Below, piece by piece: positions 4,530-22,070 of a stretch of 32,000 nucleotides of DNA (positions within the stretch are counted from its first letter, which is position 1; the number at the start of each line of letters is the position of its first letter). The position numbers and the translations under genes were made by a program. The notes beneath the pieces were generated by a model. That model worked only from the letters and a program-made list of their open reading frames with translations, did no database searches and was not told the DNA's origin. This stretch comes from Candidatus Hermodarchaeota archaeon (GTDB lineage Archaea; Asgardarchaeota; Heimdallarchaeia; Hodarchaeales; Hodarchaeaceae): NCBI GenBank assembly GCA_048886185.1, contig JBHLKY010000012.1, positions 5,881 through 37,880 on the forward strand, read 5' to 3'.

Positions 4530-5453
4530 CTAAAATCCTTTTGGATCAATTCCAGAATCAAGAATTCCTTCCCTAGATACTAAACCATAAGCCATTCGGT
4601 TCGTATTGAAATAATATCCAATTTCGCCTTGATTATTAATAATAATAATCCCTCCATAACCGTTGATATCCGCAATTCTATCAATAACAATTTTAGCAGC
4701 TACTTGGGGGGTATGTCCCTGTTGTACAAGATCAATGGCTAATTTAGCTGCATTTAATTTCATGAATGATTCACCATGGCCTGTAGAAGAGGCTGCAGCT
4801 ACCTGATTAGCATAACCCCCACTTCCTATAATGGAGCTATCTCCCAACCTTCCCACCATTTTGAATGGGGATCCACCTGTAGAGGTTGCAGAAGCTAAGT
4901 TACCCTTCATGTCAACAGCAACAGCTCCAACAGTACCTTGTGAACTTGGAGTGAAAATATCTAATCCTTCCAGTCCTTTTTCCCATCGTTCTCGTTCTCG
5001 TGGTATAATTAATTCTTTGGGATCACAGCTTATTAACATTTCTTGTGAAAAGAGATCAGCTCCTCTCCCAACTAACATTATGGGAGATTGAGGTTTCTCT
5101 AATAATTTTCTTGCTAAAGATATGGGATTTCGGCATGTACGAACGGCACCTATCGCCCCAGCATCCAATGTCCGTCCATCCATAATTAATGCGTCGAGTT
5201 CAACATACCCTTCTTTATTTAAGAAAGATCCTATTCCAGCATCGAATATTGGATTGTCTTCCATGAGAACAACTGCTTTTTCCACAGCATCGAGAGCACT
5301 CCCCTGCTGTGAAAGAATTTCATACCCCTTTTTGACAGCATTAGTAACCCCAGCTAGATGGCTGGATTTTAATTCATCTGGAATACTCCAAGCACCTCCA
5401 TGGACAACGATAGCGGGTTTAATTGGATTTAGTAAGGAACTCTTTGATGTCAT
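4530..5453 (-). CDS. iaaA: Isoaspartyl peptidase / type 2 L-asparaginase (Ntn hydrolase)
   Basis: IVVHGGAW, ELDALIMDG, autoproteolysis site GTVGAVAVD, STGG, GRLGDS, STGHGE. ATG 5453 preferred over the ORF start at 5477. Confidence 0.93.
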   Translation of the reverse strand: MTSKSSLLNPIKPAIVVHGGAWSIPDELKSSHLAGVTNAVKKGYEILSQQGSALDAVEKAVVLMEDNPIFDAGIGSFLNKEGYVELDALIMDGRTLDAGAIGAVRTCRNPISLARKLLEKPQSPIMLVGRGADLFSQEMLISCDPKELIIPRERERWEKGLEGLDIFTPSSQGTVGAVAVDMKGNLASATSTGGSPFKMVGRLGDSSIIGSGGYANQVAAASSTGHGESFMKLNAAKLAIDLVQQGHTPQVAAKIVIDRIADINGYGGIIIINNQGEIGYYFNTNRMAYGLVSREGILDSGIDPKGF

Positions 5454-5672
5454 TTTCGTTCTAAAGGTCAATATCACAAATAATTAAAGAAATTACTGTT
5501 CTCTAGATTATCATAGAATGCATTATTCTGAAGTTTATTATGCAATTAGAAGAATAACTACTCTTATTGGTTCAATAATGTAGTAAAATTATAAAAGATT
5601 CGTTACTACCATTGTCTAATATTATTTTTCATTATCACAGGTTGATAAAAGCGCTCTTACTTCTAAATGAGG

Positions 5673-5686
5673 ATTGAATATTCAAT
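5673..5686. promoter_or_regulatory. Perfect 14-bp palindrome, candidate operator in the divergent intergenic region
   Basis: ATTGAATATTCAAT is self-complementary and lies between iaaA (-) and the gene at ~5779 (+). The region is AT-rich, so chance is not excluded. Confidence 0.35.
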
Positions 5687-5778
5687 TATTGTCAATTCAG
5701 AAAATTAATACTTTGACATCACACAGAATAATGCTTATTTATTACTATTCATGTTTTTATGATCAAAGAGATGAATTG

Positions 5779-6335
5779 ATGATGACCAATTCTAACAATC
5801 CACTAAAAATTGAAAAAATTAGGATCACACCTAAGAGATTCATTTATATTAAGCTCTGGAACCCTCATATCATTCTAAATGGGGAATTCATCGTTCTATA
5901 ATCGAATTGCAGGAAGCTAAGTTATCTGAAGATAAAAAGATTTCTTATGGCACCCCGATCCGTCTTCCCTGTGATGGAAGTTCAGCTCTTATCGCAGATC
6001 TTATAACTAACTATATAATTGACGGAAGACGACTGAATGATGAGTTTAAGGCGCATCAAGAGGAAATTTCCATATCTATACCAAAAACAGGGGAATCTAA
6101 ACGTAGTAACGAATATTCTGGTATGACTTTGGAATCTTTACTCCTAGATGAGTTTAGCAATCAGAAATTGTCAAAAACAAAAATAATTTCTGGACTCTCA
6201 AGAAAAGGAATTGAAATAGATAGGGAGGATTTACTCCAGTCACTCGAATCCTTAGCAGATCAAGGGAAGATAACAAAAGAGTTTGCTGTTCATTCAAGTT
6301 CAGGTACTCGTTACACTCTTTGGGGATTCTTTTAA
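5779..6335 (+). CDS. Putative nucleic-acid-binding protein (PC4/Whirly-like N-terminal beta region plus C-terminal winged helix), probable frameshift near 5851
   Basis: The 5907..6335 frame is open upstream to 5853 (ALEPSYHSKWGIHRSIIELQE). ATG 5779/5782 in another frame gives MTNSNNPLKIEKIRITPKRFIYIK; one extra A at ~5851 joins them. C-terminal wHTH pattern: SKTKIISGL..IDREDLLQSLESLADQGKITKE....RYTLW. Confidence 0.55.
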
Positions 6336-6678
6336 TTCTGTTTAGATCGAAAAACACTAGCTATCTTACAAGTATTCTTGTTCTTATTTTCCTTCTATCA
6401 AGGCATTTATGGGTCAAAATTTATAGATATTAAAGAAGAATATCAATATACCCTAATGAATTAGTAAACTCAATTTATAGTATAGAAAAACCTAGTGTTC
6501 TTTGGTAAAGTGACTCTAATCCCCAAAGAATAGAATTTAAGAGAGAGCATTAAAGTAAAATCTAGGATAATAAATTTCTATTATCTATATATCCTAGTAA
6601 TATAAATATGAAGACATTTTTTGTAACTTGAAGTGTAGTCTTTTCATCTCTTACTTTGTACACAAGGAGCCGTCAAGA

Positions 6679-7068
6679 TTGGACGAACAAATAAAGAATG
6701 AGCTGCGTACTATTTTAGAAGATGTCTTCCAAAAGAATTCACAGGTACAAATGATCTCCTTAATAACTCCTGAAGGTCTTCCCATCTTAACATATAACCG
6801 TGATTCCGAAAGTGGGCCCTCCGAAATTACAGATTCAGGGATCCTGAATAGATATGCAGCTCTTGCAGGAGCGAGTACATCTTTAGGAGACCGCACACTT
6901 TCAACTCTTTCTGAAGAAAAAGTTCGTCTAATTCATGTTCAAGGAAAAACTAAAGATATAGCTATAGCTGTTTCTCCGCATCTAATCTCTTTGGTTGTAA
7001 CTGTCCCCTCTGGAAGTCCAAACATTCTTGCGGAAAAATTAAATTCTGAATTAAAAGCAAAATTATAA
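6679..7068 (+). CDS. Roadblock/LC7 (MglB-like) domain protein
   Basis: ISLITPEGLPI hairpin, AALAGASTSLGDRTL helix, VRLIHVQGK strand. AAGGAG at 6664-6669 precedes TTG 6679; the ORF track start is TTG 6628. Confidence 0.85.
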   Translation: MDEQIKNELRTILEDVFQKNSQVQMISLITPEGLPILTYNRDSESGPSEITDSGILNRYAALAGASTSLGDRTLSTLSEEKVRLIHVQGKTKDIAIAVSPHLISLVVTVPSGSPNILAEKLNSELKAKL

Positions 7069-7086
7069 TTAAGAGTTGAATTCTTT

Positions 7087-9042
7087 ATGGATCCTCATCA
7101 ATGGTTCGATTTAATGAAAGAAGCTCTAAGTTTAGTTGAATCTGAAGTGGATAACTCTCAATTTGAATTAATGCTCTTAATTCAGCCAGCTGCGGAAATT
7201 CAAACTTTTTCTACTTCTAAGAACCAAGAAGATGTGAAAAACACTACTTTAGTTGGACAAGCATGGAATAGCATTATTGGTACTTTAACTAATGAACTTC
7301 AATTGGGGACCTGGAATTCTCTTACTATAAAGAGTCACAATAAGGTATTTACAATGTACTCTATTGGTTTCGATGTAAATCTTATACTTATATCGGAAGC
7401 TGCTATAGACTCTTTAGATGTCCTAAAGGTAATTCTAAAATTCATTTTCAAAATTGGTTATCAGAAAAAATATGAAACAGTAGGACTAGTATCCTCAGAA
7501 GGCTTTCCAGTTTGGCTTACTTCTATAGAAGAAATGGATGATTTTCTCTTTGCGATTTCAATTACTTCGCTTCTTTCTCTAGTAGAACGTATAGATTATG
7601 AGGTTTCTGCTGGTGGAATAGGCGCTTGTATCCTCCAAGGAACTGAAAATTTACTATTAAATGTTGCTTTTAATCCTTCACAAGATTTAGCTCTCGCGGT
7701 GACACAACAAGGCACAAACTTAGATGAAGTAGCTCTTGATCCAGAATTGAGTTCATTTTATCAAAAAATTGTAGATCCTCTAATCTATAGCGCATTCGTA
7801 CCTGAGATTATTGATGAAGATCGAGAACGGATGCTAGAAGAAATTCGTCAAGCTTTTGAGGGTGAGACAACAGATGAAGAGATTGAAACTCTAAGTGCAT
7901 TCAACACCGAAATGCTCCAATCTCTTGAAAATGAAATTAAGACAGTTGCTAAAAAATATGGAGCAAATGAAATATCTATAGGATATCTTCGTAAAAGAAT
8001 GAGGTTACCTTCCGAAGTCCTCTCTATGGCTTTAGAATATCTCATTGAAGAAGGAGCGATCAGTGGAAAGGTTGGAAAGGATCGTGTATCAGGACATGAA
8101 ATATTAGTCTTAGATTCAAGAGTTGATATTAGTAAGGAAGATGAAGAAAAATTAAAAATTATTAAAACTCAAATTGATGATCTTTTTTCACCAATTAAAC
8201 CCTTTCTTATACAATTGCCTGAGATTCAACCAGTAAAAAAAGCTGTTCAGGAAGGTATAACCGAAGCTTTAGGGGAATTTCAGATAATGATTACTCTATC
8301 TGATACTGACCCTCTATACTTATTGGCTAATGATTTACGAATTGTAGGGACACACCTAGAAAGTTCTGTGAAAACATTGAAACTAGTGAAAAACCAGCTG
8401 TCAGAAACAGATCAAGAGGATGTTCTTCGAAATGAGTTAGAACGTCGACACAATAATTTAACTGAGAGAATTCATGAACAAAAATTAACAGCCATTGGGA
8501 AAATTACCCGGTTTTATGGAGATCTTCTAAACTCTTATCGCTTACTTTTTCGATTACTTCCCCTACCAGCTACATTTAGAAGATCTAAGAGTAGGAAAAA
8601 AGCTATCATTATTTTCAAATGCGAGGCGAATACTTGCGATGAAACTTTCCGAATACAAGATAATCCGTCTACATGGGTTAAATTACGCGTTTTTGCAAGA
8701 GTTCTTGGCATTCAGGAGGATTTTCCTAAAAAAACTACACCTAGTGTCTCCAAATTAAGAAAAAATTTGGCAAATCGTCTTAACAAACTTACCACTTTAT
8801 TGAGAAAAGCAGAAGAGAGAATAGACTTTCTACCTGAAGATTTTCTTATTATAGAAAACATGGAAGAGCTATTAATCACAAATACTCAAAGAGACAATGC
8901 GATCAACACCCTCCGAAAGGGTATATTTAAACGAGGTACTGTAAAGAAAGACTTCTATTCGCTTTACACACAATGTAACTCCTGTAACAGATGGTATTGT
9001 CCAAATCATATGGCAACAACTAATAAATGTAAATATTGTTGA
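7087..9042 (+). CDS. Multidomain protein: two tandem Roadblock/LC7 domains, acidic linker, winged helix, helical/coiled-coil region, C-terminal Cys/His Zn finger
   Basis: Domain 2 has VGLVSSEGFPV...FAISITSLLSLVERI..EVSAGGIGACILQG. Domain 1 is a more divergent copy (TNELQLGTWNSLTIKS...SIGFDVNLILIS). WH: ISIGYLRKRMRLPSEVLSMALEYLIEEGAISGKV. C-terminus: CNSCNRWYCPNHMATTNKCKYC. Confidence 0.75.
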   Translation: MDPHQWFDLMKEALSLVESEVDNSQFELMLLIQPAAEIQTFSTSKNQEDVKNTTLVGQAWNSIIGTLTNELQLGTWNSLTIKSHNKVFTMYSIGFDVNLILISEAAIDSLDVLKVILKFIFKIGYQKKYETVGLVSSEGFPVWLTSIEEMDDFLFAISITSLLSLVERIDYEVSAGGIGACILQGTENLLLNVAFNPSQDLALAVTQQGTNLDEVALDPELSSFYQKIVDPLIYSAFVPEIIDEDRERMLEEIRQAFEGETTDEEIETLSAFNTEMLQSLENEIKTVAKKYGANEISIGYLRKRMRLPSEVLSMALEYLIEEGAISGKVGKDRVSGHEILVLDSRVDISKEDEEKLKIIKTQIDDLFSPIKPFLIQLPEIQPVKKAVQEGITEALGEFQIMITLSDTDPLYLLANDLRIVGTHLESSVKTLKLVKNQLSETDQEDVLRNELERRHNNLTERIHEQKLTAIGKITRFYGDLLNSYRLLFRLLPLPATFRRSKSRKKAIIIFKCEANTCDETFRIQDNPSTWVKLRVFARVLGIQEDFPKKTTPSVSKLRKNLANRLNKLTTLLRKAEERIDFLPEDFLIIENMEELLITNTQRDNAINTLRKGIFKRGTVKKDFYSLYTQCNSCNRWYCPNHMATTNKCKYC

Positions 9043-9072
9043 TATATCTAATTGGAATAGGGGACACAATGG

Positions 9073-9864
9073 ATGAAACTAGTGGTAGGAATCGATATAG
9101 GTTCGTTAACAGCAAAAATTGTTGTTCTAGCGATTCCCAACAGATCAAAGGACGAAATCGAGCAGAAATATTCCTTTATTAAACGCGTAGGTTATAATCC
9201 AGCGGGGATTGCCATTGATCTTATAAATAGTGCAAAAAAGTCTATAGGGGTAGAAAATTTTTCCTATATGATCTCTACTGGTTATGGGAGAAAATTAGTT
9301 GAGAATGCTGACGAGAGAATAACTGAGATTACATGTCATGCTACAGGAGCCTTTTTTATCAATCCTGATATTCGAACAATAATTGATATTGGAGGACAAG
9401 ATTCCAAAGTAATTCAAATAAATGAAAAAGGTCAAATTCAAGATTTCGAGATGAATGATAAATGTAGTGCAGGGACAGGACGCTTCTTGGAAGTCATGGC
9501 TAATGCTTTAGAAGTAGAACTGTCAGAATTTGGTAATCAAGCCCTAATTTCTACAAATCCAGCTTCTATATCAAGTATATGCACTGTATTTGCAGAATCA
9601 GAAGTAATTTCTCGTCTGAATCAAGGAGCTAATAGAGTTGATATTATTGCCGGAATTCACAAAACAATTGCCAATAAAATTACTGCATTAGCAGCCCGAG
9701 TAGGAATCAAACCATTAATAGCCTTAACAGGTGGAGTTGCTTTAAATCCAGGAGTGAGAAAAATGCTTGAAAAAAACTTCAACTTACCTATTGAGGTTCC
9801 TGTGCATCCCCAAATGATTGGAGCATTAGGTGCTGCTTTGTTAGCATCTAAAAATCTAGTATAG
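9073..9864 (+). CDS. 2-hydroxyacyl-CoA dehydratase activator-type ATPase (HgdC/HadI/BadG family, ASKHA fold, [4Fe-4S])
   Basis: GIDIGSLTAK, STGYGR, EITCHA, DIGGQDSK, MNDKCSAGTGRFLE, SSICTVFAESEV (both cluster Cys present), GGVALN, IGALGAAL. Confidence 0.93.
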   Translation: MKLVVGIDIGSLTAKIVVLAIPNRSKDEIEQKYSFIKRVGYNPAGIAIDLINSAKKSIGVENFSYMISTGYGRKLVENADERITEITCHATGAFFINPDIRTIIDIGGQDSKVIQINEKGQIQDFEMNDKCSAGTGRFLEVMANALEVELSEFGNQALISTNPASISSICTVFAESEVISRLNQGANRVDIIAGIHKTIANKITALAARVGIKPLIALTGGVALNPGVRKMLEKNFNLPIEVPVHPQMIGALGAALLASKNLV

Positions 9865-9884
9865 TTCTAAATAGAGGAATATTA

Positions 9885-10859
9885 TTGTCCAATGTTTACA
9901 AAGATTTGACAATTTTAGATGTGAAAGAAACACTCAGGCAGATACGACCTTATGTGATTAATACGCCATTAATTAGGTCTTATTATTTAGAAAAACAGAT
10001 TGGAAAGGAGATATACTTAAAACTAGAGTATTTACAACCAACACGATCATTTAAAGTTCGTGGAGCTTGCTCAAAGGCATTATCATTAGAGAAAAAAGAA
10101 CTATCAAAGGGATTAGTTACCGCATCTGGCGGAAATCATGGATTGGGAGTATGTTATGCCGGAAGAGAACTCAAAACTCCAGTTATTGTCTTTCTTCCAA
10201 TAAATACCGCTAAAGAGAAAGTAACTTCAATACAGCAATGGAGAGGGAAGACAATTTTATTTGGTGAAGCTTGGGATGAGGCAAATCTTAAAGCACAACA
10301 ATACGCACAAGAGAATGATTTAACATATATTCACCCGTTTGATGATATAACTGTGGTTAGAGGTCAGGGAACTATAGCAATCGAAATACTAGAGCAAAAT
10401 CCCTATCTCGATGCAATTGTGGCTTCAGTTGGAGGAGGAGGTTTGATTAGTGGAGTTGGGGTTGTCTCAAGACAAATGAAACCAGAAATTAAAGTTTGGG
10501 GAGTTGAAACAATTGGATGTGATGCCGTGACACAAAGTTACAGGTTAGGTCATCCTGTCACTTTACCTGCTATTACAAGTATTGCAGACACATTAGGGGC
10601 AAAGAGAACAACAGAAGCAACCCTAAGCAGAATTAAAGCCGTTGTAAATGATATGCAAACTGTTACTGACAAAGAAGCTTTAGATGCTTTACAGTTACTT
10701 TTAGAAAAAGAAAAAATTCTTGTAGAACCCGCTACTTCATGTTCTGTTGCTGCCTTACTACAAAATAAGTTTGAATTATCAGATGTAGAAAAAATTTGCA
10801 TCATTTTGTGCGGTGCAAATGTTTCCCTTAGACAACTAAGAGAGTGGGGAGTGCTTTGA
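9885..10859 (+). CDS. PLP-dependent threonine/serine dehydratase without ACT domain
   Basis: KLEYLQPTRSFKVRGA (PLP Lys), SGGNHG, HPFDD..GQGT, VGGGGLISG, LVEPA; 324 aa, catalytic domain only. Confidence 0.92.
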   Translation: MSNVYKDLTILDVKETLRQIRPYVINTPLIRSYYLEKQIGKEIYLKLEYLQPTRSFKVRGACSKALSLEKKELSKGLVTASGGNHGLGVCYAGRELKTPVIVFLPINTAKEKVTSIQQWRGKTILFGEAWDEANLKAQQYAQENDLTYIHPFDDITVVRGQGTIAIEILEQNPYLDAIVASVGGGGLISGVGVVSRQMKPEIKVWGVETIGCDAVTQSYRLGHPVTLPAITSIADTLGAKRTTEATLSRIKAVVNDMQTVTDKEALDALQLLLEKEKILVEPATSCSVAALLQNKFELSDVEKICIILCGANVSLRQLREWGVL

Positions 10860-10938
10860 GCTTTGAAAATTTACTCCTAGTATTTATAATCTTAAACCTG
10901 ACGGAAGGTTGTGAACAATTCATAGGAGAAAAGCAATA

Positions 10939-11454
10939 TTGGATGCGTTAGAACTATTAAAAAGTCGTAGAAGTATTCGAAAGTATAAATCAACCCCAGT
11001 AGAGCCTGAAAAAATTGAGAAATGTCTAGAGGCTGCTCAATGGAGTCCCTCTGCCAGCAATAAACAACCTTGGGAATTTCTGATCGTAACGGATGAAGAT
11101 AAGAGAAAAAAATTAGCTATTTTCCATCCTTATGGGAAATTTGTAGCAGAAAGCCCAGTAGTTTTCATTCCTTTAACCAATCCTAAGGTTCATCCCAAAT
11201 ATCATCAATCTGATACTGCCTTAGCTACCTTACAATTCATAATTGAAGCTCATTCCTTAGGTTTGGGAACTTGTTGGGCAGGGGTCATAGGAACAAACTT
11301 TGAAAACAAAATTAAGGATTTATTAAATATCCCTGAGCATCTAAGAGTACTTGCACTCGTGGCTGTTGGATATGCTAATGAAACTCCTAGTTCTAATCGA
11401 AAACCTATTGAGAGCTTAGTCCATAAAGAATCATACATTCGTCATTATTCCTAA
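10939..11454 (+). CDS. Nitroreductase family protein
   Basis: RRSIRKY, A..SPSASNKQPWEF, AHSLGLGTCW, LVAVGY. Confidence 0.93.
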   Translation: MDALELLKSRRSIRKYKSTPVEPEKIEKCLEAAQWSPSASNKQPWEFLIVTDEDKRKKLAIFHPYGKFVAESPVVFIPLTNPKVHPKYHQSDTALATLQFIIEAHSLGLGTCWAGVIGTNFENKIKDLLNIPEHLRVLALVAVGYANETPSSNRKPIESLVHKESYIRHYS

Positions 11455-11810: not shown

Positions 11811-13706
11811 TTAGTTAGATCTTTTTGTTTTTCGGGAAAATATAACAAGTATTCCTATGAATAGAATAATGGATATGTGATTTAAAAATAAACCTGTTTG
11901 TTGGATTTGAGTGGTAGTTGGATTCATTTGCTGGGTCATCGTGCTTACTAGAATGGAAACTATAGAAGAAGATGTAATGATTATTGGTTTCCATAAGACA
12001 TAATAAGGTCTCATGAATTCAATTGGAAAAATGGTTTCATTTAGAGAAGAATCTATAAAATAAAAGCGATAGTAATATTCTAATTCCCTACTTAGCCCAA
12101 TAAACTCATACTGACCAGAATCCTTGAAATCTAAATCTTGTAAAACCAATTCTTGATATCCAGCAACACCCCACTCGATCTCTATTCGCACAGGGCGATC
12201 AATAGTCCATTCTACTAAAATACCTCTTGAAGTATTGAAAAACTCAAGGTGAAGGATTACTGGTTGGTAAGGGGATGGTTCAAATCCCCAAGTGGTTGAG
12301 AATGCCAAATTAAAGGTTTTTGGATAAAGTCGTGTAATGTTATTTTGATCAGCAATCCATAAACGATAATATACCCTGTAACTTACTGGTGCTTTAATTA
12401 AAATTGTTCTTGATGTATCAAGTGTTGTATTAATGTACTTTATTGTTTGATAACCTGCTTCCCCCCATTCTGCAATGATTTGCGTTGGAATATCGGTTTT
12501 TAGAGATAATCTGACACCTGCAGTCGTATTAATTGCATTAAATGAGACTACTTGAGGAGAAAACTCTGAATTTATAAAAACTGATGGTCTCCATTTATTA
12601 TAGTAATTTCTGATTAATGAATTGTTCGTAAGCCTATAAATAACCTCTAACTGGAAAACATGAATCTTTAGATAGTCAAAATTGACTTTACCTTTTCTTG
12701 CGTATTTCGAAAGCCCGAAATAAGTATCATATTCAGGAAGACTAGATTCAATTGCTGCACTTCCTTCATAAAATAATTGGCTTGCTAGGGCCTTTTTTTG
12801 CGTACGAGGGTGTTTTGAGTACTCATAAAGTCCAAAAATGGCATAAATATGACCGTTTAAGATAAATTCTAAGTCTTCCTCTTGTTCACAGGGCGATTCG
12901 AGAAACCATGTTTTATTGATTCCCTCAATAAAAGTAAATCCTCCTTTTTCCCGTGTATAATTGTTTCCTGTGAAAGTGATACCCCCCTCTTCCCATTCAT
13001 AAGTAAATGTTTCCAAGACTTTGTTTACTCCTTCTAAATAGGAACTATTTCCAGTGACTTCTTCTGCTCTAAGAAGAACTTGAATAATCAATCCTTGTGC
13101 TAACCCTGAGACCCAAGGTACAGTTTGTTTATGCCAAAGTGGGATTTTCCAATTATATAGGAAGAAACCATCGTTTGTCATGTTTTTCATTAAAAAATCA
13201 GCAATTTTCAGAAGTATACTATAATTGTTAATCTGATAATTAAATAATGCGAAGAAAGCTGTTGTTACAGGATTGTATTTCCAACCTAATTCATAATCGT
13301 GTAAGCTAATTATAACATATTCTCCGGTAAACTGATAGATTCCTTCTTTAAAGTGGCGTTCAATAGAAATTAAATCTTTATAAACTATTTTCCAACCATC
13401 AATATCATATTCCTTATAGAAGGAGTTGTTATTAGGAACATCTGGTGAAACAAGATTTGTTAATCCTTCTTTATGATGATAATCTATATTTTTTGTCTTT
13501 TCAAGGATTTTAGGATTTTTAATTTCTTTTGAATTCGAAAATAAGGAAGTATTGTATGAATAGGTAAAAAAGGATGAATAGGATATTAGGATTATAAGCA
13601 TAATGAATTGAATCATATTCTTAGACAGTCTATATTTCAAAATAAATAAGCTAATTCCAACATTAGGTGTTTCCACCTTTATTTCCTCTCTGATAGATTT
13701 TTTCAA
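11811..13706 (-). CDS. Surface-anchored D-glucuronyl C5-epimerase-like protein with two FN3/Ig-like repeats and a C-terminal TM anchor
   Basis: C5-epimerase C-terminal motifs YNPVT, WVSGLAQG, WFLESP, FILNGHIYAIFGLY, YDT, YLKIHVFQL, YYNKW. N-terminal hydrophobic segment, many NxS/T sequons, T/Q-rich linker, TM, then RKTKR. The start codon may lie downstream (MIQFIML). Confidence 0.8.
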   Translation of the reverse strand: MKKSIREEIKVETPNVGISLFILKYRLSKNMIQFIMLIILISYSSFFTYSYNTSLFSNSKEIKNPKILEKTKNIDYHHKEGLTNLVSPDVPNNNSFYKEYDIDGWKIVYKDLISIERHFKEGIYQFTGEYVIISLHDYELGWKYNPVTTAFFALFNYQINNYSILLKIADFLMKNMTNDGFFLYNWKIPLWHKQTVPWVSGLAQGLIIQVLLRAEEVTGNSSYLEGVNKVLETFTYEWEEGGITFTGNNYTREKGGFTFIEGINKTWFLESPCEQEEDLEFILNGHIYAIFGLYEYSKHPRTQKKALASQLFYEGSAAIESSLPEYDTYFGLSKYARKGKVNFDYLKIHVFQLEVIYRLTNNSLIRNYYNKWRPSVFINSEFSPQVVSFNAINTTAGVRLSLKTDIPTQIIAEWGEAGYQTIKYINTTLDTSRTILIKAPVSYRVYYRLWIADQNNITRLYPKTFNLAFSTTWGFEPSPYQPVILHLEFFNTSRGILVEWTIDRPVRIEIEWGVAGYQELVLQDLDFKDSGQYEFIGLSRELEYYYRFYFIDSSLNETIFPIEFMRPYYVLWKPIIITSSSIVSILVSTMTQQMNPTTTQIQQTGLFLNHISIILFIGILVIFSRKTKRSN

Positions 13707-14184
13707 TTTTAACGAATTTATTCATAACAAGAAAAAGGGATGGATATTTTGTTTAATTCAATATCTCCTTTTTAGTTTTTGATATGATATGTTAAGCTTA
13801 AGCCCACAAAAAATTCCAATAAACTCAAGAAAAGGTTTTTTTATATGTCTTTTCAAGAATATTGGTTCAGAATCAATGACTGTTTGTGGTTGTGTCTATT
13901 TGGGTAATTTAATCCAGGAACTAAACTTAAGAGGAATATTTATGCTATAACTGATGTACCAATATACTTCTAAACATCGATAAAATTTATTTTCGAAGAA
14001 AATCCAAGTAAATATTCCTTTTTAACATACATTAATATTATTGTTAAATGATAACTTTATGAAGCATAATAAGAGTAACTAAACGGCCATTTAGAGCATT
14101 TACGAGCTTTATTATTATTCATTCAAAGAAATTATCTACTTAACACCAACTAAAATTTCAATAAAGAATTCTATCATCATATGA

Positions 14185-14193
14185 TTTAATATA
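14185..14193 (+). promoter_or_regulatory. TATA box for the candidate sRNA
   Basis: TTTAATATA lies about 22-30 nt upstream of the 5' end of the structured element at 14215. No + strand ORF follows it. Confidence 0.5.
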
Positions 14194-14214
14194 GGATTAA
14201 AAAAATGGACAGAA

Positions 14215-14283
14215 TGAGCCCCTGATGTTCGAAAGGCATATGTCTGATTCGTGATGACTGAAGGTTCCGAACGATGGGGTTCA
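14215..14283 (+). ncRNA. Candidate C/D-box-like (K-turn/K-loop) small RNA, ~70 nt
   Basis: Terminal stem UGAGCCCC/GGGGUUCA; C-like UGAUGU (14223); D' CUGA (14244); loop UUC; C' GUGAUGA (14251), extended by GUC/GAC pairing; degenerate D (CCGA or ACGA). GC-richer than its flanks. Confidence 0.6.
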
Positions 14284-14285
14284 CT

Positions 14286-16562
14286 TCATCGAAGAGCCAG
14301 TTGAAAGGAGAGATTTTTCTGTTCTTGTTGTCCAAATCCAATTAAATCAGCTTGGCCTCGCTTTATGGCTAGTTCTGCAGTTTCAACATCGAAATCACCA
14401 CTACAAACGATGGCGATGTGAGGAAGATCATCTTTTACTTTTTGGATAAATCGCTCAACACCTGCTTCTTGATCTGATAAATAGTCGATACAAAGTAGCT
14501 CGATCCCTGCTTTCTCGATTGATTTAACGACTATAGATAGTTCATCTTCAGATAAACCATGAAATGGAGCCGAGATATAAAAAGCAAGCATCATGTTTAA
14601 AGGAAGATTTGCACGAATCGCCGTTGCCACTTCTAATGGAAAACTAATACGCTTCTTAAGCGATCCCCCGTATTCATCGCTTCGTTGATTGTATTCTTGT
14701 GAGAGAAATTGACCAAGGAGATCTGGCTTGTTATGTGTTACGCTTGAGGAGATTTCAACAATATCAAAACCCACACGTGCAGCACGCATTGCAGCTTCAA
14801 CGAAAGAATCACGAATCTCAATAATTTCATCGTCTGATAAAGAACGAGGGGTATCATGATTTATGATTGGGATTGCTGAAGGTGCTATTGGTTGTACACC
14901 ACATATTGATTTCTTGGTCGCACCACCTGCATGAGTCAATCTTATACCAATAAGAGATCCGTATTCATGAACTTGATTGACTACTTCCTTAAGCCGAGGA
15001 ATTACATAATCATCATGAATTCCAATTTGATAGAGATGATCCTTTCCTGAAGGAGTTATATAAGCAGGCTCCAGATAGACAAGTCCCGCACCACTCTGAG
15101 CTATTTTAGTATAATGGTTAATCGCGTCTCGAGTAATCTGGCCATTTACCAGTTCCCCTGCATTTATCTCTCCGATCTTGGTTGAAGGCATTACTACTCG
15201 ATTTCGAGCTTGCAGCTTTCCCAATTGGTAAGAACGAGTCAGAATTGATTCTTTTGGAACACGATTTCTAATTATTAAAATCATCAGGGTTGCGATTGTA
15301 TATAGGGTAGCAGTAAACATGAAAACATAGAGAAAACCAAAATTATCTATAATAAATCCTCCAAATGAGGCAGAAAGCGACCAGAACATTCCCCAAGCTA
15401 AAGTTTCTAATGAATTCCATTTAGCTCTCGAAGTTGATGGAACTACATCCATGACAATAGAACGACTCACAGGTCCAGCTGCATTCATTAAAGCATTACG
15501 ACTAATATAAAAAATCACCAGAAGTAATACAGATATAGGAAATGAGATGATCTGATTCTGATATAATAAAAGGTTTACCACCAAGCCCAATAAACAAATA
15601 ATTGCGAGACCCTGAGTTAAGAATACTGAACCAATACGCCCAAAGATTCTAATCATCCGTTGAGCTAGAAGTGCTGCTGATCCTGTAATAATAAATGTTG
15701 TACCAGTTATAAGATATGTAAAGAACGGTTTCAAGCCATATCCTATTGTTGGGTTAGCAAATAAAATAGGAAAAAACGCTACTGTAGCCCCAGCACCAAA
15801 TCCAATGATCACTCCACTGATAACTAAAATTGTAGGAGTTATAGCATCATAATAAAACGGATATCCGAATAATGTTACATATGGTTGATCTTTGGTATTT
15901 TCTTTCACCAAAGTCCCTGACTCAGGAGAAACTGACTTTTTTACCTTAATTACAATTGCCTTATCGTCAGAAGCAAATATCACCGTAATGTAGGCAATTA
16001 TTGAACATATTGCTCCAATGAAAATGAGATTTTGAAGCAAAGTGAAATCCCACGCGTCACCAAGGATCAATGTAAGCCCCGCTGCTAAGTAAGGCCCTGC
16101 AGCTGATGCTAAAAGGTTAGCAAAAAACATTTTTGCGAAAACTTGACTTCGACGACCTGGTTCAATAGAATCAGCAATTAATGCCTGTGCAGCCGGACCA
16201 GATAATCCCCAACCTATTCCTCCAAAGGTTTCACTTAGAAAAAGAACAGATAGTGCTACATGAGGAGTTTCAGTCAATGTAGTTGAATAAATAAGCGCAA
16301 TTTGAGCGAAAACGCCAAAGAATACAGAGATTCGGATGAGGAGATCTCTCCGATATTTATCTGCAAAATATCCAGAAGGAAACACAAAAATAGTAGAAGC
16401 TAATCCTTGTATTGTAAAAAGATTCCCCAAGATCAAATTAGATTGTCCTAATCCTTGAGGTGGATTGTTTGTTACATAGATAGAGAAAGCAGTCTGAATT
16501 ATACCCATTCCGATAGCAAAACCAATTGTTTGGATATAAGCCAACTTGATATTCCAATTCAC
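14286..16562 (-). CDS. MFS transporter fused to a degenerate NADH:flavin oxidoreductase (Old Yellow Enzyme) domain
   Basis: About 435 aa of 12-TM MFS (SGYFADKYRRD, ADSIEPGRRS) continues without a stop into LGKLQARNRVVMP, GAGLVYLE, HAG, GFDIVEI, QFLS..NQRSDEYGGSL..R..F.LEV, ADLIGFG. Confidence 0.88.
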   Translation of the reverse strand: MNWNIKLAYIQTIGFAIGMGIIQTAFSIYVTNNPPQGLGQSNLILGNLFTIQGLASTIFVFPSGYFADKYRRDLLIRISVFFGVFAQIALIYSTTLTETPHVALSVLFLSETFGGIGWGLSGPAAQALIADSIEPGRRSQVFAKMFFANLLASAAGPYLAAGLTLILGDAWDFTLLQNLIFIGAICSIIAYITVIFASDDKAIVIKVKKSVSPESGTLVKENTKDQPYVTLFGYPFYYDAITPTILVISGVIIGFGAGATVAFFPILFANPTIGYGLKPFFTYLITGTTFIITGSAALLAQRMIRIFGRIGSVFLTQGLAIICLLGLVVNLLLYQNQIISFPISVLLLVIFYISRNALMNAAGPVSRSIVMDVVPSTSRAKWNSLETLAWGMFWSLSASFGGFIIDNFGFLYVFMFTATLYTIATLMILIIRNRVPKESILTRSYQLGKLQARNRVVMPSTKIGEINAGELVNGQITRDAINHYTKIAQSGAGLVYLEPAYITPSGKDHLYQIGIHDDYVIPRLKEVVNQVHEYGSLIGIRLTHAGGATKKSICGVQPIAPSAIPIINHDTPRSLSDDEIIEIRDSFVEAAMRAARVGFDIVEISSSVTHNKPDLLGQFLSQEYNQRSDEYGGSLKKRISFPLEVATAIRANLPLNMMLAFYISAPFHGLSEDELSIVVKSIEKAGIELLCIDYLSDQEAGVERFIQKVKDDLPHIAIVCSGDFDVETAELAIKRGQADLIGFGQQEQKNLSFQLALR

Positions 16563-16819: not shown

Positions 16820-17290
16820 TTGACTAAAGCAATTATTGAAACTAAATATGGGAATATCGTAATAGACTTTTTTGACGAAGTTACAAACACCGTTAAGAAT
16901 TTTGTATCCTTAGCGGAATCAGGATTCTATGATGGCCTGAAATTTCATCGATGCATCGATAATTTTGTTGCTCAAGGAGGATGTCCTATAGGAACAGGGA
17001 CAGGTGGTCCAGGTTACTCTATCCCTTGTGAAACCGAAAAAAATACAGAAAAACACAAACATGTCCGAGGAGCTCTGTCGATGGCCCATGCAGGTAGAAA
17101 TACAGGTGGTTCGCAATTTTTTCTAGTTCGGGCACCCCAACCTCATCTGGATGGAAAACACACAATTTTTGGTGAAATTATTGACGGTTTAGAAATTATA
17201 GACAAAATTAGTAATGGAGATAAAATGAATCGAATTACAATAATTGATAAAAGTTCATTAATTAAAAATCATGAGTTAATTAAGATGTAA
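16820..17290 (+). CDS. Cyclophilin-type peptidyl-prolyl cis-trans isomerase
   Basis: [50 protein letters not shown]. Confidence 0.96.
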
Positions 17291-17392: not shown

Positions 17393-17965
17393 GTGGAGGT
17401 TTTCTCTATCCCTGTCTGCAAGAAGTGTCACAATTATGTTATGAAGTTAGACGAGGATAATCCCTGTCCTCACTGTGGAAATATCCAAACCTTGACAGAC
17501 CGAACAGATGATGAATTTCAACCAGTAATTCCACAAGATTTACAATTTGACTTTCATAAGGATATTGGCGACCAAACAAATATTTTTAGAGTACCCACAC
17601 ATCAGGAAATATACGATAAAACTTCCTCAAAAGAGGGATTACCTATTCCCCCTCCACCCACTAGTTCGCCAACTCGTGTTTCTCAGGATATTCCTTTAGA
17701 ATCGATTTTTCCCACATTGGATAATGTATCCCTTGATCCGGCTTCCCAAAAAGTATATTTTCAGTTATCTGTCGAATTCCAGATTATATTGAATAATGCC
17801 TCAAATTATCGTCAAGGTCTCTTCCGCTGGAACTTATTATTACCTGACCGGTTACAGGAATATGGATTAACGGAAGAAGCTTGGCATAAAATCGCAGCAA
17901 AGGGGGATGGCGATGAAAAAATACAAGAACAGTTGAATCGATTGCTCCGATCACTCTTTGGATAA
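17393..17965 (+). CDS. Hypothetical protein: N-terminal Zn ribbon, Pro-rich linker, helical C-terminus
   Basis: CKKC..CPHC; PIPPPPTSSP; 190-aa ORF co-oriented with the cyclophilin gene. Confidence 0.65.
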   Translation: MEVFSIPVCKKCHNYVMKLDEDNPCPHCGNIQTLTDRTDDEFQPVIPQDLQFDFHKDIGDQTNIFRVPTHQEIYDKTSSKEGLPIPPPPTSSPTRVSQDIPLESIFPTLDNVSLDPASQKVYFQLSVEFQIILNNASNYRQGLFRWNLLLPDRLQEYGLTEEAWHKIAAKGDGDEKIQEQLNRLLRSLFG

Positions 17966-19804: not shown

Positions 19805-21904
19805 TCATCTAAGGACTCTTCGTCGGATTTTCGCGGTTAATATTTGTTGCAAGAACACCTGTTTCAAGTATGTTGTTTTTTCAATTATTTTTTGAGTTGT
19901 GATTAATTTAGTATCAATAGCTGAGAGAATGTTTACAATGTCTTTTTGTTCGCTCAAAGGAGGGAGGAAAATTTGGATCGTATTAAAATCTGATCTGTTA
20001 ATTCCTCCCACAACCCCATGGAATCTTTTTTTGATTTGGTTCTGGCAGATGGAAGAGAATAATAAATAAAATAGAAAATAATTATCCAAAACTTCCCTAT
20101 CTTTACTTCTTACAATAAAAATATGTTCATTAACAGCGATTTTCTCATAGGGTAAATCCCTTACTAGACCGACTTTCCCTGTAGTTGCTCCGTCTTTCAC
20201 TACTAGAATATCATTCAACTGTACTTTTCCCTGTGAAAGGTTCTTATCATAGAATTCCTCTGGAATGAATTTGATATTCGTCCAAAGAATTTGACCTGAA
20301 TCATTAATATGTTCTCCCCCAATACTGGCTACTACTCCCTCTTTTAATGCTCCACCTTTGGCTCTTTTCCCTGTTTCTAACTCCACAAACTCCCCCAAGT
20401 ATACCTTACGCCATGTATCAGGAATGTTTTTCATTAAACTTTCTTCAAATCCATTAAAGATATCATCGATTTTCTGATTGATGTCCTTTTGTTTCTCGTC
20501 TAATTTTTTCAATTCAGAAATATCAGAATTTAGCTGAGAAATGTTTTTTGGATCATCTTCCACAGTCGTCTCAATATAAAGGGGAATATTCAGATTATAT
20601 CCATATTCTCTTATTTCTCTTAACGAAGCTACCCTTGAGAATCTTTTAATAGAATTAAAATTTTTGAATGCCATAACGATTTTAGCTATATCCTCCTCCT
20701 GTAAAATGTTCTTGGATCTTTCCTCTTTGTAGAGTTGAAATGCATCAATGAACAGTATCTTATTTTTTCGGTCTGGGTGTTTTTTCTTGTTAAGCAATAC
20801 AATAGCTGCTGGAATTGACGTTCCATAAAAGAGATTAGGAGCTATTCCAATAATTGCTTCTATTAAATCATTGTCAACCAAAGCTTTTCGGATTTTTTTT
20901 TCATTACCTCCTCTGAACAAAATACCATGAGGAAATATCGCTCCCATTCGTCCATTAGGCTGTAATGTGGCTAACATATGCTGTAAAAAAGCCATATCGC
21001 CATATGATTTTGGAGGTATTCCATATTTAAAACGATTGTATGAATCATTTTTTGCTATTTCAATTCCCCAATGCGCTAGAGAAAAGGGGGGATTTGCGAT
21101 AACGATATCAAACAGTATTAATTGATCATCCTCAATCAGCTTCGGATTTCGAATTGTATCTCCACTTTTTATTTTAAAATTAGCTATTCCATGTAGTACC
21201 ATATTCATAATACAAATTGACCATGTATGTATGTTCTTTTCTTGCCCATAAAGTGATAAATTCAGCCAATTACCCCCGTTTCTTTTAATATACTCAACAC
21301 ATTGGATTAACATCCCTCCTGATCCTACTGTTGGATCTGAAATACACATTCCCTCTTCTGGTGAGAGTAATTCTACCAAGAGTCTGACAACCATATGAGG
21401 AGTATAAAATTCTCCTCCCTTCTTACCAGCTGATTCAGCAAACTGAGCAATTAAATATTCATAGGCCCTACCCAATATATCAGGGTCAGTTAAATCACAA
21501 TTTCGTAGTCGTAGATTGCTAAAATGCCTAATTAGATGATTCACTGTTTCATTGGATAAACGGTCACTAATATCAAAGCTAATTCCCGTTAAAACCCCTT
21601 TTAAAACAGGGTTGTGTTTTTCGATTACATCACATGCCTTCATTAAAGATGAGGCGTTGAGTGCAGGCCATTGAGCTTGTTTAGGGATGAAAAATGCATA
21701 ATTATCAAGTTTGTCCTTTTCAGAATTGTTCACATGTTGAATTTTCTTTTCAATTTCTTCTTCAAAAACATCATTTAATCGTTTTAAGAATAACAAGCTA
21801 AAAATATAGTGCTTATATTCAGAGGCATCAACACTCCCCCTTAAAATATTGCTTGCTTCCCAAAGATGTTTCTCTAACTCTTCTTGACTTATTTTTATGC
21901 CCAT
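19805..21904 (-). CDS. hsdM: Type I DNA methyltransferase HsdM fused to a single-TRD HsdS half
   Basis: HsdM N-domain (LWEASNILRG..EYKHYIFSLLFLKRLND), GKKGGEFYTP, DPTVGSGGML, NPPF, GIPPKSYGD. Then IPDTWRKVYLGE...DILVVKDGATTGKVG...PPLSEQKDIV...KQVFLQQIL. ATG 21904 preferred over 21943. Confidence 0.92.
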   Translation of the reverse strand: MGIKISQEELEKHLWEASNILRGSVDASEYKHYIFSLLFLKRLNDVFEEEIEKKIQHVNNSEKDKLDNYAFFIPKQAQWPALNASSLMKACDVIEKHNPVLKGVLTGISFDISDRLSNETVNHLIRHFSNLRLRNCDLTDPDILGRAYEYLIAQFAESAGKKGGEFYTPHMVVRLLVELLSPEEGMCISDPTVGSGGMLIQCVEYIKRNGGNWLNLSLYGQEKNIHTWSICIMNMVLHGIANFKIKSGDTIRNPKLIEDDQLILFDIVIANPPFSLAHWGIEIAKNDSYNRFKYGIPPKSYGDMAFLQHMLATLQPNGRMGAIFPHGILFRGGNEKKIRKALVDNDLIEAIIGIAPNLFYGTSIPAAIVLLNKKKHPDRKNKILFIDAFQLYKEERSKNILQEEDIAKIVMAFKNFNSIKRFSRVASLREIREYGYNLNIPLYIETTVEDDPKNISQLNSDISELKKLDEKQKDINQKIDDIFNGFEESLMKNIPDTWRKVYLGEFVELETGKRAKGGALKEGVVASIGGEHINDSGQILWTNIKFIPEEFYDKNLSQGKVQLNDILVVKDGATTGKVGLVRDLPYEKIAVNEHIFIVRSKDREVLDNYFLFYLLFSSICQNQIKKRFHGVVGGINRSDFNTIQIFLPPLSEQKDIVNILSAIDTKLITTQKIIEKTTYLKQVFLQQILTAKIRRRVLR

Positions 21905-22070
21905 ATAACTGTGCAATTTTCTTTGATGGTGTTTTTTTTGCATTTGATATGCCCAAGTCGATCATTCTGATGAATAATTTTTCAATAAAAAGACTTCTTA
22001 AAACCTTATTGAAATTGAGATTTACTCAATCCTAAATTATGTATTCCAACCCATAGGGAAAATAATCCAA

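Follow-up and report, generated by a model that had tools for sequence, protein, structure and literature searches.

A conserved fusion of an MFS carrier with a catalytically degenerate Old Yellow Enzyme barrel, restricted to one Hodarchaeales-type lineage of Asgard archaea

Among the described carriers with an additional domain, LacS of Streptococcus thermophilus is a secondary carrier with a regulatory C-terminal IIA-like domain, and in LplT-Aas a flippase of the major facilitator superfamily (MFS) is fused to a catalytic acyltransferase/synthetase, which makes it a model for coupled transport and conversion. YajR of Escherichia coli, an MFS carrier of 12 transmembrane (TM) helices with motif A, ends in an appended cytoplasmic C-terminal domain (YAM), the function of which is not known (Jiang et al. 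2013/2014, cited in PMC11225705). The Old Yellow Enzymes (OYEs) of the YqjM type, represented by YqjM (1z41), TsER of Thermus (3hf3, 5nux, 8uaj) and GkOYE (3gr7), are soluble flavoenzymes; they share a homologous barrel and its N-terminal β-hairpin with the N-terminal part of FadH and BaiCD and with the domain described below. Here we report on a stretch of 32,000 nucleotides (the window) from Candidatus Hermodarchaeota archaeon [GenBank: JBHLKY010000012.1, positions 5,881 to 37,880], in which one gene, referred to as MFS-OYE, encodes an MFS carrier continued at its C-terminus into an OYE-fold barrel. The fusion is real, undescribed and restricted to one lineage.

MFS-OYE differs from each of these systems. 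LacS and LplT-Aas combine other domain families with other carriers, and the NCBIfam Aas model matches the MFS part without significance (E 0.014; 13 bits, with the cut-off at 1221). The YAM domain of YajR is a ferredoxin-like domain of about 65 amino acids, in contrast to the enzyme-derived TIM barrel of 320 amino acids found here; YAM itself is not present, its place being taken by the OYE barrel, and the MFS part has no sequence link to any solved MFS structure. Compared with the soluble YqjM-type enzymes, the barrel is a membrane-tethered domain in which the equivalents of Q102, R215, H164, H167, Y169 and R108 have all been replaced; it also has an insertion of four to five residues in the catalytic loop, a shortened β6-α6 loop and no C-terminal Arg-finger segment. 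The 4Fe-4S and FAD domains of the FadH type are absent.

The gene is a single uninterrupted open reading frame (ORF) on the minus strand, 14286-16562 of the window, of 758 codons plus stop, as delimited by ORF calling and by the starts of homologues. It begins with GTG at 16562; the start site is shared with the homologues (MNWN...), which have ATG or TTG at this position, and no in-frame ATG lies just upstream. In the protein of 758 amino acids a carrier of 12 helices (residues 1-431; 15270-16562) is followed by a tether of nine residues, RNRVPKESI (residues 432-440; 15243-15269), and by an OYE-fold (β/α)8 barrel (residues 441-758; 14289-15242), the junction reading ...IIRNRVPKESILTRSYQLGKL.... 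In Pfam the first ~430 residues match MFS_1 (PF07690) with 98.7 bits against a cut-off of 33.4, and residues 446-745 match positions 7-323 of the 342 of Oxidored_FMN (PF00724) with 127.8 bits (E 7.6e-37; cut-off 27). An AlphaFold2 (AF2) model of the full-length protein built from 26 homologues (pLDDT 79.6, pTM 0.68) consists of 12 long helices, the short tether, a β-hairpin and eight β/α units. Comparison of the whole-protein model with solved structures by Foldseek returned OYE barrels only (TMq about 0.35) and no structure with both parts. Since both domain matches have high significance and dozens of independent assemblies show the architecture, the fusion is confirmed far beyond chance, and the single ORF with a domain junction at about 15250, as read in a first-pass annotation made from the DNA letters, is borne out by the ORF, the two Pfam domains and the position of the tether.

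The descent of the barrel is clear from its fold. Its extent, comprising an N-terminal β-hairpin and eight strands, is set by PF00724, the AF2 model and Foldseek, and when modelled alone it reaches a pLDDT of 82.5 and a pTM of 0.87 with the same hairpin and eight strands. It superposes on Thermus TsER, YqjM, GkOYE, XenA and PETN reductase with template modelling scores of 0.75-0.83 (0.80-0.83 for TsER and YqjM; Foldseek), and its profile matches YqjM (1z41) with E = 8e-43. The structural motifs of OYEs have been kept, namely NR in β1, GFD-VE in β4 and FLSxxxNxRxDxYGGSxxNR. All NCBIfam OYE equivalog models match the barrel only and remain below threshold: NamA scores 123.7 bits against 431, and the models of the FadH, BaiCD and mycofactocin type score 118-128 bits against about 800 (128 against 793; 118 against 825). 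The C-terminal 4Fe-4S and FAD/NAD(P) domains of the FadH type are missing, as the protein stops with the barrel and the match covers only positions 5-242 of the 645 of the model. Judged by its sequence, the barrel is a YqjM/FadH-type OYE homologue by descent, yet it does not show the functional hallmarks by which that family is defined and is therefore not classed here as an OYE enzyme. In a profile search of 1.84 billion representatives the fused family scored 485 bits, two fragments scored 243-260 bits and everything else at most 202 bits; a stand-alone counterpart of the degenerate barrel did not appear in this exhaustive search.

The loss of the flavin-binding and catalytic residues was followed by aligning the family profile to YqjM and counting the columns in 26 members. 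At the end of β2 (EPAY, 15060-15071, minus strand, as for all segments that follow) A58 of YqjM is replaced by Pro in 26/26 and A60, a flavin-facing position, by Tyr in 21 and Phe in 5. In β3 (IRLTHAGG, residues 540-547, 14922-14945) the FMN-binding Q102 has become R541 in 25 of the 26 members and Ser in one, R108 has become Gly, Ala, Ser or Val, and H544 is invariant. The positions of A60 and Q102 face the isoalloxazine ring in YqjM, and an aromatic residue at the former together with Arg at the latter could fill the former flavin cavity. The β4 loop EISSSVTHNKPDLL (residues 603-616, 14715-14756) is the most variable of the domain: the H164 column holds Ser (22) or Ala (3) with one gap, the H167 column is hydrophobic, and the Y169 column holds Asp (14), Asn (8), Ser (3) or Gly (1), the equivalents of H167 and Y169 being separated throughout the family by an insertion of four to five residues. 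One member of the 26 has HxxH in this variable loop, which is taken as chance. In β5 (MMLAFYISAP, 14565-14594) no Lys or Arg is found at 658-665 in 26/26, so that R215 of YqjM is lost, while P666 is invariant; the exact R215 equivalent shifts by one to two residues between alignments, and the absence of a basic residue does not depend on that choice. In β7 the canonical VGG(I/R) phosphate-binding turn is replaced by CSGDFD (14388-14405), with G722 and F724 each kept in 25/26 and D723/D725 mostly kept. In β8 the segment GFGQQ (residues 742-746, 14325-14339) corresponds to G307-R308 of YqjM, with Gln in this protein; the G307 column holds Gly (13), Glu (12) or Ser (1) and the R308 column Arg (11), Lys (10), Gln (3, this protein included) or Thr (2). 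The β6-α6 loop is shorter than in YqjM-type enzymes, whose last ~20 residues have no counterpart here, the profile alignment ending at position 317 of the 338 of YqjM.

Two kinds of controls show intact motifs. The three stand-alone OYE genes of the same genome (342, 366 and 401 amino acids) keep every canonical motif, and the nearest outsiders in the profile search also keep Q, HxxHG[YF], R, GG and GR. The first-pass annotation had described the barrel as catalytically degenerate, quoting the β4 string (within 14701-14760), IRLTHAGG and the GQ that lies in GFGQQ, all of which are present where it placed them; the degeneracy holds in all 26 aligned members, and so does the shortened C-terminus. 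Its GR to GQ replacement is correct for this protein and two others and does not extend to the family, as the R308 column shows.

The consequences of such replacements are known from GkOYE, in which Q102, R215 and R308 are the key FMN-binding residues: single alanine mutants are all still yellow, and the double mutants and the triple mutant are colourless, with no FMN detected by liquid chromatography-mass spectrometry (PMC11233575). The apo form keeps the TIM-barrel structure (8X0J), and Y169F essentially abolishes reduction (PMC11233575). Every member of the fused family is without the equivalents of Q102 and R215 and without the Tyr, and the window protein lacks all three FMN-binding residues. 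By analogy with the colourless GkOYE mutants, we infer that the barrel of the fused family no longer binds flavin mononucleotide (FMN), because two or more of the Q102, R215 and R308 equivalents are gone. The engineered variant apo-GkOYE.8 (Q102A/Y169F/R215A/R308A; 8X0J; PMC11233575), which is among the structural matches of the barrel, is comparable in that the same key FMN-binding and proton-donor residues are gone and the fold survives. It differs in being engineered and soluble and in retaining H164, H167, C26 and the substrate pocket, none of which is kept by the natural family.

The degenerate barrel is nevertheless under purifying selection. Ratios of nonsynonymous to synonymous substitution rates (dN/dS) were estimated by the Nei-Gojobori method (NG86) from codon alignments of 13 genes and amount to 0.09-0.22 for the barrel and 0.08-0.15 for the carrier. 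Among the individual pairs, L015/L018 (dS ~0.12) gave 0.22 for the barrel and 0.08 for the carrier, L012/L014 (dS 0.4-0.6) gave 0.108 and 0.100, and L008/L009 (dS ~1.1) gave 0.093 and 0.118; more distant pairs are saturated and still give 0.09-0.22. No complete copy contains a stop or a frameshift in the barrel, and relaxed selection, named in the first-pass annotation as an argument against its reading, was thus not observed. The barrel is the faster-evolving half (mean pairwise identity 52% against 65% for the carrier), at a rate within the range of genuine neighbour genes, for example ORF651, whose relatives are 39-72% identical to the copy of the window. There are 37 invariant columns, family-specific ones among them.

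About 40 full-length relatives (737-780 amino acids, 49-77% identity), all with both Pfam domains, were found in a search of 5.8 billion proteins. They come from metagenome-assembled genomes (MAGs) of Asgard archaea labelled Hodarchaeales, Heimdallarchaeota, Promethearchaeota and Candidatus Hodarchaeum mangrovi, and their public names, if any, are 'MFS transporter' or '2,4-dienoyl-CoA reductase-like'. The 26 aligned full-length members (51-77% identity) are free of stops and frameshifts. Among species-representative genomes the full fusion occurs at 13 loci, two of them on closed chromosomes (CP070695, CP070760). Among 83 genomes surveyed from this class, full-length matches occur in 14 of the 22 genomes of the window's GTDB genus-level group, the window's own included, and close MFS-only copies in three further genomes of this group; in every other Heimdallarchaeial family surveyed the fusion is absent and the relatives are MFS-only, with 35-41% identity. 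The fusion and the motif loss are conserved, the GR to GQ change excepted, and the possibility raised in the first-pass annotation that the relatives encode two separate genes was answered in part: no relative has the barrel as a separate gene, and some have no barrel at all. The sequence occurs in four sediment-metagenome DNA runs of one study, from which the window may stem, with no RNA run listed. ORFs of about 793 amino acids in one other family (f7), in which the barrel match seemed to start in TM12, were rejected as fusions, since they are canonical OYE + Pyr_redox + SCP2 proteins with intact motifs and no carrier. Two genes from outside the window's group, also Heimdallarchaeial (L027:1284-3662 and L028:974-3343, both on the minus strand), encode proteins of ~790 amino acids in which a motif-intact OYE is followed by Pyr_redox FAD/NAD and C-terminal SCP2 sterol-carrier domains, an unusual FadH-like architecture.

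The close MFS-only proteins (417-472 amino acids, 53-60% identity) end a few residues past the tether. In a carrier-domain tree rooted with twelve distant homologues they group together with the fused proteins (support 100/100), and the tree calls for a minimum of two to three events of barrel gain or loss. One MFS-only protein, P0046, is nested inside a fused clade (100/99), and its gene is complete, with a convergent gene next to it downstream; the barrel has been cleanly lost at least once. The ingroup backbone is a polytomy, and for the two larger MFS-only clades either polarity fits the tree. The '...RNRxPxE' tail of the MFS-only proteins was considered as a vestige of the tether that would prove loss and was rejected, as distant MFS-only outgroups end in '...PLV.KEK' or '...VPKES'. 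In L001, L020 and L021 an MFS-only gene occupies the same syntenic slot, and tblastn detected no relic of the barrel downstream of it. The space after the carrier gene in MFS-only loci is filled by a hydrophobic ORF of 401 amino acids without a Pfam match (L001:7638-8843, plus strand), which was examined as a detached barrel and rejected (BLASTP E 0.58). An Arf/Ras-family small GTPase gene, typical of Asgard genomes, lies nearby (L001:3617-4255, plus strand). In one MAG (L023) a genuine fused gene faces, at its 3′ end, a convergent MFS-only paralogue. The barrel is thus useful enough to be conserved and not indispensable.

The carrier half has the features of an MFS protein: the PF07690 match above cut-off, 12 TM helices in a 6+6 arrangement (Pfam, DSSP helices of the AF2 model and hydropathy) with a central cytoplasmic loop, and motif A. 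The first and the last helix comprise residues 3-31 and 410-431, and the central loop between helices 6 and 7 (residues 198-237) is disordered in the model. The roles of motif A and the definition of motif C (G-x3-G-P-x2-G-G) have been described (PMC11225705). The motif A-like loop GYFADKYRRD between TM2 and TM3 (16344-16373, minus strand, as for the next two segments) has G64, A67, D68, R71, R72 and D73 invariant in the family and departs from the textbook motif in having R-R where a G-R pair is expected. The segment ASAAGPYLAAG in TM5 (16077-16109) resembles motif C, the 'antiporter motif': in A152-S-A-A-G156-P157-Y-L-A-A the GP core is kept and invariant, and the flanking Gly positions are Ala. 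In TM4 the segment ALIADSIEPG (16155-16184) carries the invariant, membrane-embedded D131 and E134, a candidate proton or cation site. Matches to the NCBIfam models TIGR00900 and TIGR00880 are far below cut-off, a profile search with the MFS half retrieved no PDB chain at E ≤ 1e-3, and the matches of this half in an ESM-Atlas feature search are generic MFS clusters only. The motif C-like segment and the acidic TM residues, from which the direction is deduced, suggest a secondary-active, proton-coupled carrier of the antiporter or exporter type.

In the tether P436, E438 and S439 are invariant, as is L441, the first residue of the barrel. Being only ~9 residues long, the tether should hold the barrel close to the cytoplasmic face. 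The barrel most probably lies on the cytoplasmic side, given the 12 TM helices, the position of motif A in the cytoplasmic TM2-TM3 loop and the established MFS topology; the cytoplasmic C-terminal domain postulated at first reading is supported, as the barrel follows TM12. A docking prediction of carrier against barrel gave a score of 0.01 with no controls run and counts neither way.

On balance we lean towards the view that MFS-OYE is an antiporter-like carrier with an accessory or regulatory barrel that is neither flavin-dependent nor catalytic. The cytoplasmic C-terminus of a secondary-active MFS carrier would run through a rigid tether of nine residues into the OYE-descended barrel, which would be retained, without FMN binding or ene-reduction, as a folded non-catalytic accessory module and would modulate the carrier through a small ligand or a partner bound at its remodelled C-terminal face. 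The individual parts of this scheme carry different weight. That the barrel is a non-flavin and non-catalytic, yet selected accessory domain we regard as highly probable; that it regulates transport through a ligand or a partner is a tentative proposal. The latter is suited by the family-specific invariant residues P499-A500-Y/F501, R541, H544, P666 and G722-D-F-D, because they cluster at the C-terminal strand ends, on the old active-site face. The sensor or gate for the transporter put forward in the first-pass annotation was pure inference, and a redox sensor is unlikely because there is no flavin. A more specific version, in which the dead barrel has turned into a receptor that binds a metabolite (an electrophile, a quinone or a phosphorylated compound) at the R541/H544/Y501/D723 face and allosterically switches the antiporter, is speculative and rather improbable. 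Several observations weigh against the accessory role as outlined. Conservation in the barrel is lowest in the former substrate loops after β1 and β4, and because they are so variable a precise small-molecule pocket is disfavoured there; the bulky Y/F501 and R541 may merely fill the old flavin site; and the loss of FMN is deduced from alanine mutants of a different OYE, with Arg or Lys still at the R308-equivalent phosphate position in 21/26 members, so that residual binding of a phosphorylated ligand is possible. To these is added the dispensability of the barrel, seen in the MFS-only genes of the same syntenic slot and in the position of P0046 within a fused clade.

Invariant polar residues on the C-terminal face (R541, H544, E603 and D723/D725, plus Q512/H516) and the strong purifying selection would also suit a repurposed enzyme, free of cofactor or using another one, that acts on the cargo at the cytoplasmic mouth of the carrier and couples transport with conversion, and the engineered FMN-free scaffold GkOYE.8 does catalyse a different reaction (PMC11233575). 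That activity needed H164, H167 and C26, however, which are absent here, the substrate-shaping loops after β1 and β4 vary freely in sequence and length, H544, E603 and the N-R-D-YGG motif are conserved in ordinary OYEs too and may be structural, and the carrier is kept in lineages that lost the barrel; we consider such an enzyme unlikely. It is still less probable that the barrel is left over from a recent fusion, neutral or in decay, or is only a passive appendage that aids stability or folding and has no specific function. The clean shedding of the barrel at the domain boundary with no remnant downstream, its faster evolution and its narrow range in one genus-level group would fit this explanation, but decay would bring stops and indels, whereas the frame is intact in every complete copy at divergences down to ~42% domain identity, the dN/dS of the barrel is similar to that of the carrier, unsaturated pairs included, and the 37 invariant columns include family-specific ones. 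That the barrel is still active as an FMN-dependent ene-reductase or NAD(P)H oxidoreductase through an unusual mode of binding might be read from the significant Oxidored_FMN match, from the retention of H544 (the H105 equivalent) and of Gly in β7 and β8, from Arg or Lys at the R308 position in most relatives and from the FadH-type members (E. coli FadH), which are not known to have the His pair either. It is made very improbable by the replacement of Q102 by Arg and of A60 by Tyr or Phe, the lack of a basic residue in β5, the loss of the Tyr proton donor, the short β6-α6 loop and the missing C-terminal segment, by NCBIfam scores far below every equivalog cut-off (NamA, for example) and by the complete loss of FMN in GkOYE double mutants at these positions (PMC11233575). 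An assembly or gene-calling artefact joining two adjacent genes can practically be dismissed: although the source is a MAG and the gene is split into two ORFs on the related contig L002, the same in-frame junction recurs in dozens of independent assemblies, the closed chromosomes CP070695 and CP070760 among them, and the break in L002 lies inside the MFS part, away from the domain junction. This contig, a JGI metagenome sequence, has at 5210-7449 (plus strand) two ORFs of 228 and 482 amino acids about 100 nt apart; its barrel is intact and 91% identical to that of P0030, and the split reflects a pseudogene or else an error of sequencing.

The surroundings of the gene are conserved as well and are given as context only. 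The usual order comprises a type I restriction-modification (R-M) methylase, a second MFS gene, ORF190 and a cyclophilin gene divergent from MFS-OYE, which in turn is convergent with genes for a nitroreductase, a PALP enzyme, a BcrAD/BadFG ATPase and ORF651. In the window the cyclophilin-type peptidyl-prolyl isomerase (16820-17290, plus strand) is divergently transcribed and is a neighbour in nearly all related loci, and the row ORF651 (no Pfam match), BcrAD/BadFG ATPase, PALP enzyme and nitroreductase (7087-11454, plus strand) is convergent in almost every one of them. A functional link of this four-gene row to the carrier is possible. In L023 a copy of the nitroreductase gene lies directly upstream of the MFS-only paralogue, on the same strand. 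The ORF of 190 amino acids (17393-17965, plus strand), with an N-terminal zinc-ribbon-like CxxC...CxxC motif, a Pro-rich middle part and no Pfam match, adjoins the cyclophilin gene in most related loci with 55-75% identity. Further upstream, 19805-21943 (minus strand) encodes a polypeptide of 712 amino acids with HsdM_N, N6_Mtase and Methylase_S domains, a fused M+S subunit of a type I R-M system, syntenic in several relatives. Between MFS-OYE and the nitroreductase gene, in this genome only, lies a gene (11811-13706, minus strand) for a membrane-anchored protein of 631 amino acids with a C-terminal D-glucuronyl C5-epimerase domain (PF06662, E 4e-32) and, after it, a pair of similar C-terminal repeats (...EWGEAGYQ... 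and ...EWGVAGYQ...); its absence from all related loci suggests an insertion specific to this lineage. The spacer downstream of the MFS-OYE stop codon (13707-14285) is AT-rich (GC about 0.28), and an Rfam search past the stop codon returned nothing, the single U6 match at 13684-13736 (E 0.18; 17 bits, with the cut-off at 44) being put down to chance.

Full-text literature searches, which covered MFS-OYE fusions, MFS proteins of Hodarchaeales and pseudoenzyme TIM barrels in transporters, found this architecture nowhere described, nor a natural FMN-less, catalytically dead member of the OYE family. This fits the remark in the first-pass annotation that the architecture was not recognised from described proteins, and where public databases carry the family, it is as 'MFS transporter' only; the label '2,4-dienoyl-CoA reductase-like' given to some entries is misleading for the fused proteins. 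The OYE family is heavily studied for its biocatalysts, and here selection preserves a dead member that is limited to one Hodarchaeales-type lineage and attached to a membrane carrier by a tether. Were a role established for it, the barrel would represent a new type of accessory domain for MFS transporters, in which control by appended domains is little understood, and a natural model for the re-use of a flavoenzyme barrel once the cofactor is gone. Should the receptor reading prove true, it would be the first OYE-derived sensor domain, a natural case of enzyme-to-receptor conversion wired directly to a transporter, within the order of archaea that is nearest to the eukaryotes.

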